Sequence record: NC_028927.1
Source of the DNA: Escherichia phage slur02
Length of the DNA: 64,000 bases
Reading direction: 5' to 3' (one strand)
Under the pieces are notes generated by a model, which saw nothing but the letters and a program-made list of their open reading frames with translations, had not been told where the DNA came from and did not search any database. This document shows positions 38,164 to 42,233 of this stretch, piece by piece; position 1 is the first letter of the stretch; each line of letters opens with the position of its first letter. The translations under genes were made by a program, and so were the position numbers.

Positions 38164-39132
<969 letters not shown>

Positions 39133-39151
<19 letters not shown>

Positions 39152-39621
39152 TCAGTGATAAAGCTATTTAAATTTTGGGTATATTTCTTTTCATCAAAAA
39201 TCTTTTGTTGTCTGCGTAAACGCCATGGCATTTCAATGAACGTGTACCATATCCCAGATAATATTGCTGCTGTAAAAATATTAACAAGTATGGTTAAAAT
39301 AATCCAATCTCCCGTTCTGTCTACTGGACTTTCTCCAAAGAAGCAAAATACAAATGATGTCACAGGAAAACTAATAATGTACCACAGAATCATAATTTTA
39401 TCTGTGAACCAATCAGCATTTGTTAACTTAGCACGACCATTATGAATACACACGAATTTATCATCTGTTATAATAGATGGCTTAGCTGCTTGATATCCCA
39501 TTCTAAACTCCCTAATCAACAAATTTTTCATATCTTCGGAACAACCATTCCAGTCAACTCTATTAACTGAAATGCCATCATCCCCATCATCTAAATCATA
39601 CCAGCGAGTTTTTAAAATCAT
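39133..39621 (-). CDS. membrane protein (e.2 position)
   Basis: 162 aa; TM helices in C-terminal half; C-terminal ECRKLK. Confidence 0.45.
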
Positions 39622-39980
39622 TTAATTTTCCTACAATCACTCACAAACTCTTCCATTGATTCTTTTTCAATATAAGACATGTAGCTATTATATTCCTTTA
39701 ATTGTATTTTGTAATCCTTTTTTCTTTGCCAATTTATTTTAAAATTATCATAATGAAAATATAACATGGTACCAAAGAATGAAAATAATGAAATAATTTT
39801 AGTATAGTGAAGTTCACTCCAAACTTCTATTATATTTACTGTGCCGTCAATGTTTAAAATAAGACAGTCAATTAACAATCCAAAAAGACTACCCGCAAGA
39901 GCTGCAGCCAACGCTACAGCAAAAATTAAAAATGACTCAGGAAGAGAATATTTGACTTTATTTAGTTTTGGCTTTTGCAT
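39618..39980 (-). CDS. membrane protein (e.3 position)
   Basis: 120 aa; two TM helices; C-terminal DCRKIK. Confidence 0.45.
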   Translation of the reverse strand: MQKPKLNKVKYSLPESFLIFAVALAAALAGSLFGLLIDCLILNIDGTVNIIEVWSELHYTKIISLFSFFGTMLYFHYDNFKINWQRKKDYKIQLKEYNSYMSYIEKESMEEFVSDCRKIK

Positions 39981-40375
39981 CGTGATTCCTTAACAAATTT
40001 CATAATTTCATCAAATTCATGCGCAGCAAGTTTAAGCTGATGTTCCTTTTTAATCTTTTTACACTGAGCTTTCCAATCACGTACACGTTTACGATAGTGT
40101 CTTCCTTGATACCAGTATCCTATCCAATTTATAGGTACTAATAAAAGCGGAACTACCAATGGAAGAATTAGTGTTGCTCCAAATATTGCACCAGATTCAA
40201 TATCAGTCATAACGTCTATAACTATTCCAGCAATCAGCAGAATCACAAATGATACGGCTACCACAGGACCTATTAACACATCAGTAGAAATTATCTGACG
40301 CTTTAATTCATACTTCAACGGTTTACTTGGAAGGTATAGTGATGGCTTTGACATATTCTCTACATTCCTTAACAA
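39962..40375 (-). CDS. membrane protein (e.4 position)
   Basis: 137 aa; two TM helices; C-terminal ESRCKSQN. Confidence 0.45.
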   Translation of the reverse strand: MLRNVENMSKPSLYLPSKPLKYELKRQIISTDVLIGPVVAVSFVILLIAGIVIDVMTDIESGAIFGATLILPLVVPLLLVPINWIGYWYQGRHYRKRVRDWKAQCKKIKKEHQLKLAAHEFDEIMKFVKESRCKSQN

Positions 40376-40928
40376 ATTTTTCTAATAATAAATCGCTTTC
40401 AAAATTGGGATTTTCTACGAATTTATCAAAAAGATCATCAACAATAGTTAAGATATTCTTTTTACTAAGAATACGTTTATTTTCATGCTTCGTTTCAGAA
40501 TCAACTATAAGAGTAAAGAAATATTTCTTGCCCTGAAATTTTACAGTAGTATCAATATAGAATAAATTTGACTTTTGTAAATTACGTTTAAACCATGCAT
40601 CACTTAAACTATAAACACCAAGATAATCATAATCGTCGTTTAAATAACATACTGTCCATTCAGGAGAAATGAAATCAGTAAATTCAACATCAAAATCACA
40701 TGTTAATGAATGAATTGATTCAATACTGTTAATAAGTATTCCAGGACGTATTAAAGACTTTTTACCTTTATAAAATCCAGAAAGACTTTCATCAGTTTCA
40801 TATGAAGAACCCCAATAATAATTACGTCCTTCTGCCATACGTTTAAGAGCATTTAATAATTGGTCTGGAACATCAACCTGTCTTTGGAACTCTTCAAACA
40901 TTGAATTGAAATCACTTTGCATTTTCAT
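40323..40928 (-). CDS. hypothetical protein (e.5 position)
   Basis: 201-aa ORF. Confidence 0.5.
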   Translation of the reverse strand: MKMQSDFNSMFEEFQRQVDVPDQLLNALKRMAEGRNYYWGSSYETDESLSGFYKGKKSLIRPGILINSIESIHSLTCDFDVEFTDFISPEWTVCYLNDDYDYLGVYSLSDAWFKRNLQKSNLFYIDTTVKFQGKKYFFTLIVDSETKHENKRILSKKNILTIVDDLFDKFVENPNFESDLLLEKFVKECREYVKAITIPSK

Positions 40929-40948
40929 TCCTACTTACTCCAAGTAAT

Positions 40949-40964
40949 AGGGGCCGAAGCCCCT
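40949..40964 (-). other. UUCG-tetraloop RNA hairpin between e.6 and e.5
   Basis: minus strand AGGGGC-UUCG-GCCCCU. Confidence 0.5.
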
Positions 40965-40969
40965 TATCA

Positions 40970-41563
40970 TTATTTCAGAGAATTAATGTATTCCTGAACA
41001 TCGGCAGAGGTAGTTTCAACCCCAGAAATATTGCCATTAAAGGTTTCAACTCGAGCAAGAGTATCTTCAATATCAACCTTAGTCAGTGCTGCAATTTCAA
41101 CTACATCATCAGCAGTACTAATTCCAAGGGCATTTGCTGCACGAGTTTCACGGATATATTCCAATTTAACTGCAAGTTCTTGGCGAGCATCATCCAATTC
41201 AACTACTTTCTTGGCGATTTCAATTCGCATTTCAGCATAACCATCAGCTTTAGTAGTCAACTGTTCAGCTGTTCGACGATATAGCAAGCCGAGTTTAGCA
41301 TGCATTGTTACATCTTGACCTTCAGAAAGAAGCTTGCGAATTTCACGCTCTTTTGATTCGGCCTGTCGATTCTTTTCGACAATAAGTTCACGAATACGTT
41401 TTTCTTCATTAATAGATTTAACAGAAGCAGTTTTTAGATCTTTAATCTTATCAAGTAGTTTTGCTGCCGCAGCAGTATACTGTTCTTCAACAGATAGATT
41501 TTTAGCCATAGCAGAACCAAGTTTAGTGCGAATAAACTCAACAATTTTCTTCAGTGTGTTCAT
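40970..41563 (-). CDS. coiled-coil protein, possibly PspA/IM30-like (e.6 position)
   Basis: 197 aa, predominantly helical charged heptads; family assignment from sequence character only. Confidence 0.35.
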
Positions 41564-41620
41564 AGTATTTCCTTAGGTTGGTATAATTAGATAATATCAC
41601 GTTTCTAATAGATTGTAAAC

Positions 41621-41956
41621 TTATTCTTCGTCTAGCTCGTCGATAAAGGCGTCGATGGCCTCGACAACGGCATCATTGATAGCCAATAAAATAAAATCAT
41701 CGTCAGTACCTTTAGAAGATTTTAAAGCATTGATATATGCTTGGTTGGCGAGTTCCCAAGCCTTTTTAAAATAAGGAGCTTCATCATCGGGGCCAACGAA
41801 ACGTACGCCTTCAAAGATACGGTTAGCATAATCCAATACCCACTGTACAGGCATGTTTTGAGAACGTTCGTTAAACTCTTTAAATTCCTTAGATTCAAAA
41901 AGCTCTTCAGGATAATCATTTCTATTACAAAAAGCTTTACTAAAGTTACGTTTCAT
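41621..41956 (-). CDS. hypothetical acidic protein (e.7 position)
   Basis: 111 aa; early promoter upstream. Confidence 0.45.
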   Translation of the reverse strand: MKRNFSKAFCNRNDYPEELFESKEFKEFNERSQNMPVQWVLDYANRIFEGVRFVGPDDEAPYFKKAWELANQAYINALKSSKGTDDDFILLAINDAVVEAIDAFIDELDEE

Positions 41957-41977
41957 AATGTTTTCCTTGTGATGATA

Positions 41978-42015
41978 AGTCTATAGTAACGCCTTCATAC
42001 TTAGATGTAAACTAT
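41978..42015 (-). promoter_or_regulatory. T4-type early promoter
   Basis: GTTTAC (42007-42012), spacer, GTTACTATAGACT. Confidence 0.5.
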
Positions 42016-42165
42016 TTCAACATCGCCTTTTGCTGTTTTATAACCTTCAGCCCAAGATACAACCGAGTTTTTATCTGAAGATTCAAATTCTGGCATTGGG
42101 CTTTCGCCAATGTTCACGCAGTATGTTTCTTCATTTTCGTCGAACCAAATAATTAAAGTAGTCAT
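42001..42165 (-). CDS. small hypothetical protein (54 aa)
   Basis: ATG with GGAG RBS; promoter-like sequence upstream; below track cutoff. Confidence 0.3.
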   Translation of the reverse strand: MTTLIIWFDENEETYCVNIGESPMPEFESSDKNSVVSWAEGYKTAKGDVEIVYI

Positions 42166-42233
42166 TTATTTCTCCGTTTCTGTATTTGTTTTGATAAGTC
42201 TATAATAACACCATCCTTGGTGTTTGTACACAA

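Follow-up and report, generated by a model that had tools for sequence, protein, structure and literature searches.

Genes e.2 to e.6 of T4 are still labelled hypothetical, although T4 is the best-studied lytic phage, and the question raised by this locus is what these small genes, transcribed ahead of lysozyme gene e, do together. We approached it in a stretch of 64,000 nucleotides from Escherichia phage slur02 (sequence record NC_028927.1), called here the window. It belongs to a Tequatrovirus (T4-type phage), and its positions 38600-42200 match Escherichia phage slur04 at 100% identity and hundreds of T4-type phages at 90-99%. A first-pass annotation, made from the letters alone, had described e.2, e.3, and e.4 as a paralogous trio of membrane proteins with a similar charged C-terminal motif, followed by a coiled-coil protein loosely resembling PspA/IM30, and had considered the whole as a possible membrane-remodelling or envelope-stress module. 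The observation is confirmed, and comparative genomics points to a module. The earlier interpretation is only partly supported, because the paralogy of the whole trio is weak, the motif is also present in e.5, e.6 itself lies below the Pfam threshold, its last ~50 amino acids (aa) are not PspA-like, and the function is one that we infer. The genes lie on the minus strand and are transcribed in the order e.8, e.7, e.6, e.5, e.4, e.3, e.2, nudE, and lysozyme gene e; thus, the PspA-like protein does lie near the membrane proteins, but it is transcribed first and they follow, contrary to the order that had been described. The genes under study are the following:

40970-41563, minus strand: e.6, 197 aa, 99.5% identical to T4 e.6
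40323-40928, minus strand: e.5, 201 aa, soluble protein, no transmembrane (TM) helices
39962-40354, minus strand: e.4, 130 aa, membrane protein, ATG start as in the T4 annotation
39618-39980, minus strand: e.3, 120 aa, membrane protein
39133-39621, minus strand: e.2, 162 aa, membrane protein

Because five mutually independent results converge (a profile search against the PDB, Pfam matches among relatives, hhalign comparison, an AlphaFold model, and Foldseek searches), we assign e.6, from its sequence and predicted structure, as a divergent PspA/IM30 protein (ESCRT-III superfamily), whose homology to PspA/Vipp1 extends from helix alpha0 to helix alpha3. The link to Vipp1 became visible only once distant members of the family had been added. 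A profile of 30 closer relatives (A1) matched solved Vipp1 structures at E values of 1.4-3.4 only, yet in a collinear manner, and none of these 30 relatives matched PF04012 at E <= 10. When distant members down to 18% identity were included (alignment A2), an hmmsearch against the PDB detected Synechocystis Vipp1 at E 9.5e-5, aligned along residues 1-146 versus 1-147, and further Vipp1/PspA chains as well, among them Nostoc Vipp1 at E 3.7e-3, so that the Vipp1 proteins of two cyanobacteria span E 9.5e-5 to 4e-3. In addition, 5 of 38 diverse members of the e.6 family matched the Pfam family PspA_IM30, two of them, P0066 and P0065, with 39.0 and 35.1 bits against a cutoff of 33.9, over residues 6-146 aligned to positions 2-143 of the 220 in the profile. 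Both belong with e.6, as the e.6 profile recovers full-length P0065 (E 1.5e-21) and P0066 (E 2.9e-20), and a tblastn search with P0066 matches annotated e.6 genes of T4-type phages. Finally, hhalign of A2 against a template of E. coli PspA and Synechocystis Vipp1 gave 90% probability and E 1.6e-6 over 136 columns, pairing e.6 residues 1-138 with PspA 1-140.

The predicted structure agrees with these alignments. The AlphaFold2 model of e.6 (predicted local distance difference test, pLDDT, of 75) consists of an N-terminal helix (residues 3-22) and a hairpin of two long helices (25-80 and 86-145, pLDDT 83-95), followed by short helices only (157-160, 165-175, and 186-196) of mixed confidence; therefore, the description of the protein as almost entirely coiled coil was roughly right up to residue 145, after which the structure is mixed. 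The eight best Foldseek matches in the PDB were all Vipp1, followed by the archaeal ESCRT-III protein CdvB2, with a marginal best E of 1.3e-3. In BFVD, the members of the e.6 family ranked first, ahead of a Snf7 protein from a giant virus and a phage protein annotated as PspA/IM30. The hydrophobic moment of the putative alpha0 helix is 0.45 in e.6, compared with 0.42 in PspA and 0.57 in Vipp1, and distant e.6 relatives begin with MGI(L/F)SR, as PspA does. At the level of the family, the PspA/IM30 resemblance that had been noticed was thus borne out by the A2 profile, the relatives that pass the Pfam threshold, and hhalign, whereas e.6 itself remains below that threshold. Searches with the single e.6 sequence (Pfam, PDB sequences, PADLOC, NCBIfam) returned nothing or coiled-coil noise only. 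A hidden Markov model (HMM) search of 1.8 billion representative proteins recovered 45 family representatives, nearly all of ~200 aa, which depict a small and discrete family; this search recovered the e.6 family alone and no cellular PspA.

The second component of the locus is a short C-terminal tail. In a six-frame scan of the window (329 open reading frames, ORFs), the strict pattern F[IV]..C[RK] was found three times, against a mean of 0.73 in shuffled sequences, and all three matches correspond to the C-termini of e.2, e.3, and e.5, with a serine replacing the cysteine in e.4. The similarity reported among the ends of the three membrane proteins is therefore beyond chance, but it is not a feature of the trio, as the soluble e.5, which had been overlooked, ends in the same motif. 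Pattern scanning located the tails as follows:

40359-40376, minus strand: e.5 tail FVKECR, residues 185-190
39980-39997, minus strand: e.4 variant tail FVKESR, residues 120-125 of the 130-aa form
39630-39647, minus strand: e.3 tail FVSDCR, residues 112-117
39145-39162, minus strand: e.2 tail FITECR, residues 154-159

We defined the tail group by the pattern hydrophobic-[EDN]-x-F-[IV]-x-x-C-[RK] at no more than 25 residues from the C-terminus, and e.2, e.3, and e.5 conform to it strictly. We then extended the analysis to six-frame ORFs of 40 loci around e.6 relatives, taken from viral contigs. The strict motif appeared 119 times; 113 of these matches were on the e.6 strand and no more than 25 residues from a C-terminus, and 112 of the 113 lay downstream of e.6. 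The carriers were e.5-type soluble proteins and two-TM membrane proteins, to which some phages add soluble proteins of ~95 aa, with [LIFV]-[END]-x-F-[IV]-x-x-C-R-[KRG] as the consensus over the loci. An e.5 relative was present in 39 of the 40 loci and was, wherever checked, the first gene after e.6, and within its divergent family (13-22% identity), the tail contributes two of the three invariant residues, F185 and C189. The AlphaFold2 model of e.5 is poor (pLDDT 61), its C-terminal helix 180-195, which spans the tail, reaches a pLDDT of ~45-55 only, and this low-confidence model gave no fold match in the structure search. Precomputed annotation assigns the Pfam accession PF26876.1 to homologs of e.5, and a Pfam search with e.5 itself gave no match.

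In the window, the codons of the motif overlap the AAGGAA/AGGAAA ribosome-binding sites of the next gene, so that the shared C-terminal residues could in principle be a by-product of Shine-Dalgarno sequences and no protein motif at all. This explanation is barely credible and was rejected on codon data: the 18-nt DNA of the motif occurs in 82 distinct versions, the cysteine is encoded by TGT in 60 cases and by TGC in 53, all six arginine codons are used (CGT 32, CGA 11, CGC 10, CGG 2, AGA 26, AGG 19), and anything between 0 and 24 residues separates the motif from the stop codon. Because the codons vary freely while the phenylalanine and the cysteine are invariant in the divergent e.5 family, the sequences indicate that the tail is selected at the protein level.

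The three membrane proteins that carry the tail were analysed by Kyte-Doolittle hydropathy, and TM helices were found in all of them, in agreement with their earlier description as three consecutive membrane proteins; thus, both a PspA likeness and TM helices were detected, the two features whose absence had been named as evidence against the first reading. Protein e.2 is predicted to begin with a soluble part of ~75 aa, followed by two TM helices (~76-96 and 105-127) and a cytoplasmic tail rich in basic residues, and in e.4, two TM helices (~27-49 and 55-76) precede a tail of the same kind. In e.3, the first helix (17-40) is strong and the second segment (59-77) is weak, with a mean hydropathy of 1.16, again with a predicted cytoplasmic tail. 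As basic residues are located both ahead of the first helix and behind the last, the predicted topology is N-in/C-in, which would place all the tails in the cytoplasm. The sizes given earlier (162, 120, and 137 aa) hold for e.2 and e.3; for e.4, the start is most likely the ATG at 40354 (MSKPS..., 130 aa) and not the upstream TTG (39962-40375, 137 aa), because an AAGGA ribosome-binding site, the T4 annotation, and the start of the PHROG profile agree on the former.

The relationship among these proteins appears looser than that of a paralogous trio. Pairwise BLASTP among e.2, e.3, and e.4 aligned the tail only (e.2 versus e.3, E 0.007). With hhalign on ortholog-only profiles, the probability was 76% (E 2e-5) for e.3 versus e.4, over 87 columns that begin in the first TM helix, take in the second, and end in the tail. 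For e.2 versus e.3, it was 84%, confined to the last 21 residues, and for e.2 versus e.4, 4%. Comparisons of e.5 with the three membrane proteins aligned the 7-9 residues of the motif (25 columns in the e.2 versus e.4 comparison). Iterated HMMs fuse the e.2, e.3, and e.4 families, although the hydrophobic composition of the TM segments could drive this fusion. The three proteins thus have their architecture and their tail in common; on these sequence comparisons, it is plausible that e.3 and e.4 descend over their whole length from one ancestor, and unproven for e.2.

The linkage between a PspA-like gene and tail-bearing membrane proteins is found again in a second phage family. The closest relatives of P0066 are Ackermannviridae, and in four loci of this type, two kinds of proteins are encoded after the PspA-like gene: one of ~180 aa with a single N-terminal TM helix and, ~20 residues before the C-terminus, the sequence ...ESI[LV]xRAR..., and another of 50-70 aa with a single TM helix, ending in ...I[IV]xxAR..., whose hydrophobic N-terminal stretch falls below the hydropathy cut-off in one locus. 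A relaxed pattern, [FI][IVL]..[CA]R, applied to the six-frame ORFs of the four loci gave nine matches, eight of them in genes located just downstream of the PspA-like gene. In addition, the comparison of Kuttervirus GEC_vB_GOT with Kuttervirus bering revealed one insertion or deletion (indel) as the sole difference in the stretch compared (L044 3969-5378 versus L048). It coincides precisely with the PspA-like gene plus both TM-protein genes, and its flanks join 14 bp apart in bering. The cassette sits between a conserved 113-aa gene and the DNA ligase gene, and the full stretch is present in ~40 of 220 related records. As the indel spans exactly these three genes, sequence comparison indicates that the PspA-like gene and the two tail-motif membrane-protein genes are gained or lost as one unit in Kuttervirus. 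The HMMs of the T4-like families scored at most 11 bits against the proteins downstream in Ackermannviridae, too little to establish that these two groups of membrane proteins are homologous, and only the shape of the tail is similar.

The module proposed in the first-pass annotation thus gains comparative support from the placement of the motif in 112 of 113 cases and from the Kuttervirus indel. By analogy with PspB/PspC-PspA and LiaI-LiaH, we consider it an even bet that the phage PspA-like e.6 and its tail-motif partners constitute a membrane-protection module, in which we infer both the binding of the tails to e.6 and its role. The predicted amphipathic, cytoplasmic tails of e.5, e.4, e.3, and e.2 (hydrophobic-[E/D/N]-x-F-[I/V]-x-x-C-R) would serve as docking peptides for one common partner, for which e.6 is the best candidate; e.6 would polymerise on membranes, and the membrane proteins would anchor or regulate this polymer at the inner membrane. 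Such an assembly could prevent leakage across the inner membrane and sustain the proton-motive force while infection proceeds, and its role could include a function already suggested in the literature, namely, resistance to abortive-infection systems that depolarise the membrane. As host transcription is shut off by T4, the sigma-54-dependent psp operon would hardly be induced and the response of the host would be poor. T4 has been reported to induce the host psp operon only weakly (PMC12795941). In a broader version, T4-type and Ackermannviridae phages would carry a self-contained viral ESCRT-III/PspA system, in which a short, conserved cytoplasmic tail of the form hydrophobic-E-x-[F/I]-[I/V]-x-x-[C/A]-R, borne by several membrane proteins and one soluble protein of the phage, recruits or regulates a phage PspA-like polymer at the host inner membrane; we regard this generalisation as tentative and rather unlikely as it stands. 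If true, it would represent a new recruitment code for the ESCRT-III/PspA superfamily, which is ancient and remodels membranes, controlling membrane integrity during infection.

Several observations weigh against the membrane-protection module or against its PspA-like core. Protein e.6 itself did not match PF04012 (gathering threshold 33.9 bits) at E <= 1, its alpha0 is modelled with a pLDDT of ~40 only, and the hydrophobic moment of this helix, 0.45, is marginal, being reached by 6.4% of shuffled sequences. Moreover, the PspA alignments end near residue 146, at ~143 of the 220 Pfam positions, and the last ~50 aa of e.6 are specific to its family; because alpha4 and alpha5, which provide polymer contacts in PspA, are not recognisable in e.6, its assembly may differ from that of canonical PspA. 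With respect to the partners, e.2 seems to be disrupted in laboratory T4, judging from its sequence: in the reference genome (NC_000866, L043 7476-7961), the gene is annotated as 102 aa, and tblastn with the 162-aa e.2 runs out of frame with stops over the second TM helix (~residues 95-125), although FITECRKLK is kept downstream. At least e.2 would therefore be dispensable. No gene with the strict tail motif was found nearby in L046 (CfP1/RB43-type) or in L049 and L053 (two metagenomic lineages), and in the Aeromonas loci L036 and L037, an e.6 relative is present with relaxed tail variants only. Finally, the genomes of T4-type phages are plastic here and rich in small accessory genes, and thus, adjacency alone is weak evidence for a module.

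These last points lead to the main rival of the proposed module, namely, that e.6 is PspA-like but the tails bind another partner (a host protein, a protease, an insertase, or another phage protein), the linkage being merely positional and due to the clustering of accessory genes. Several loci bear e.6 without tail-motif genes nearby, and in many T4-like loci, some of the tail-motif genes are 2-5.6 kb away, with unrelated genes in between. Such independence does not fit well with the location of 112 of the 113 sense-strand C-terminal matches downstream of e.6, and with a similarly shaped tail beside the PspA-like gene of a second phage family, where three genes are gained or lost together; we consider this rival somewhat unlikely, but a serious one. 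A simpler reading, in which e.6 is a generic coiled-coil protein and its resemblance to PspA is compositional, would account for the scattered coiled-coil noise of single-sequence Pfam scans and for the marginal Foldseek E of 1.3e-3. It is very improbable and was essentially refuted by alignments that are collinear from residue 1 in every method, by relatives above the Pfam threshold, and by the 90% of hhalign with a template of two sequences.

Other alternatives accept the PspA likeness of e.6 or the membrane nature of its neighbours and assign them a different task. Protein e.6 could counteract the Psp system of the host, either by binding PspF and holding the psp operon off or by poisoning host PspA polymers. 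Its homology covers PspA residues 1-140, which corresponds approximately to the E. coli PspA fragment reported to bind PspF and crystallised as 4WHE, a chain that spans PspA residues 1-145; the region equivalent to alpha4-alpha5 is replaced, and the weak induction of psp by T4 would fit as well. Nonetheless, the general shut-off of host transcription by T4 would make a dedicated repressor redundant, and the membrane is the more likely site of action in view of the conserved, putatively amphipathic alpha0 and of the membrane proteins encoded nearby, which makes this role improbable. It is decidedly improbable, in turn, that e.2, e.3, and e.4 act in the manner of holins or form channels, with e.6 and e.5 restraining them and the module setting the timing of lysis or superinfection exclusion. 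They are small, with two TM helices (clear in e.2 and e.4, whereas the second of e.3 is weak) followed by a charged tail in the cytoplasm, an architecture known from class II holins, and are encoded just upstream of nudE and lysozyme gene e; against this, they match no holin family in Pfam, PHROGs, or NCBIfam, holin T and antiholin RI are already known to explain lysis in T4, and e.2 seems to be broken in the laboratory strain.

Compared with the known members of PF04012, PspA, Vipp1 (IM30), and LiaH, the likeness of e.6 consists of a putative amphipathic alpha0 and the alpha1-alpha2/3 hairpin, collinear from residue 1 to ~140-146. It differs in its length, 197 aa versus 222 in E. coli PspA and 258-277 in the solved Vipp1 chains, and in an end that is not recognisably alpha4-alpha5. 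Unlike PspA, it is encoded by a lytic-phage gene behind an early-type promoter-like site, without PspF, PspB, or PspC. As for the partners, their likeness to the PspB/PspC-PspA and LiaI-LiaH systems is one of analogy, as small predicted inner-membrane proteins with cytoplasmic tails and an adjoining PspA-family gene, whereas e.2, e.3, and e.4 show no sequence similarity to the PspB, PspC, or LiaI families in Pfam and NCBIfam. To our knowledge, the F-[IV]-x-x-C-R tail has no counterpart in those systems.

Part of this picture was already known. Gendre et al. (2022; PMC9409062) described phrog_1203, represented by Gp_125 of Kuttervirus SeF3a, as a PspA homolog on the basis of HHpred and suggested an anti-abortive-infection role for it, in passages that concern an Ackermannviridae phage and mention neither T4 e.6 nor the neighbouring membrane proteins or the tail motif. 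Protein e.6 matches phrog_1203 at E 1.1e-87. PspA/ESCRT-III-type proteins are also annotated in other viruses: the PspA/IM30 protein of Acinetobacter phage vB_AbaM_ME3 and a Snf7 protein from a Megaviridae sample share the fold class (structural E ~3e-3) and are near enough to cellular families to be named automatically, whereas the e.6 family is a separate and far more divergent clade. No publication was found on T4 e.2 to e.6 under these gene names. What appears to be new is the assignment in T4, together with the partner genes, the tail motif and its connection with e.6, and the cassette of Kuttervirus. If e.6 works as PspA does, T4 would supply membrane repair in a cell whose inducible Psp response is largely silenced, with a bearing on the proton-motive force of infected cells, on the timing and inhibition of lysis, and on resistance to membrane-depolarising defence. 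The tail motif offers a mutable handle on the recruitment of PspA/ESCRT-III polymers by partner proteins, and the presence or absence of the cassette in Kuttervirus provides natural isogenic comparisons.

Regarding database labels, Pfam gave no significant match for any of e.2 to e.8 and few sub-threshold ones, restricted to e.2 (two, both unrelated) and e.6, with nothing for e.3 and e.4; NCBIfam gave nothing for e.2 and e.3 and only unrelated sub-threshold matches for e.4. PHROGs labels the e.2 family as 'membrane protein' and the remaining ones from e.3 to e.8 as 'unknown function' or not at all. Homologs of e.6 are named 'host specificity protein' in many GenBank genomes, and one BFVD entry is named 'tail completion protein'; neither name was backed by anything found for e.6. 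In T4-type loci, the remaining tail-motif genes are located 0.4-5.6 kb after e.6. Separately, other T4-like loci (L007-L015, L027-L032, L038, and L039) contain arrays of proteins of 65-100 aa at ~0.8-3 kb downstream of e.6, with C-termini of the form G-x-W-V-S-S-S-x-x-C or W-Y-P-S-S-C, which represent another small-protein family whose hallmark is its C-terminal motif; this family is absent between e.6 and e in the window.

Two DNA elements flank e.6, detected by a consensus scan and a stem-loop scan, respectively:

41591-41619, minus strand: promoter-like site immediately before e.6 (TTTACA, 17 nt, TATTAT, and a TG upstream; 10/12 matches to the consensus)
40949-40964, minus strand: hairpin between e.6 and e.5 (GGGGC-UUCG-GCCCC, perfect stem with a tetraloop)

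The former resembles a T4 early promoter, and from its sequence, e.6 appears to have a putative early-type promoter of its own. The hairpin has no clear U-run on the sense strand and could act as a stabiliser of the e.6 mRNA or as a partial terminator. Downstream of it, neighbouring genes from e.5 to nudE overlap by 4-32 nt, all on the minus strand:

40323-40354, minus strand: e.5/e.4 overlap
39962-39980, minus strand: e.4/e.3 overlap
39618-39621, minus strand: e.3/e.2 overlap (ATGA)
39133-39151, minus strand: e.2/nudE overlap

This arrangement suggests that the block from e.5 to nudE may be translationally coupled.

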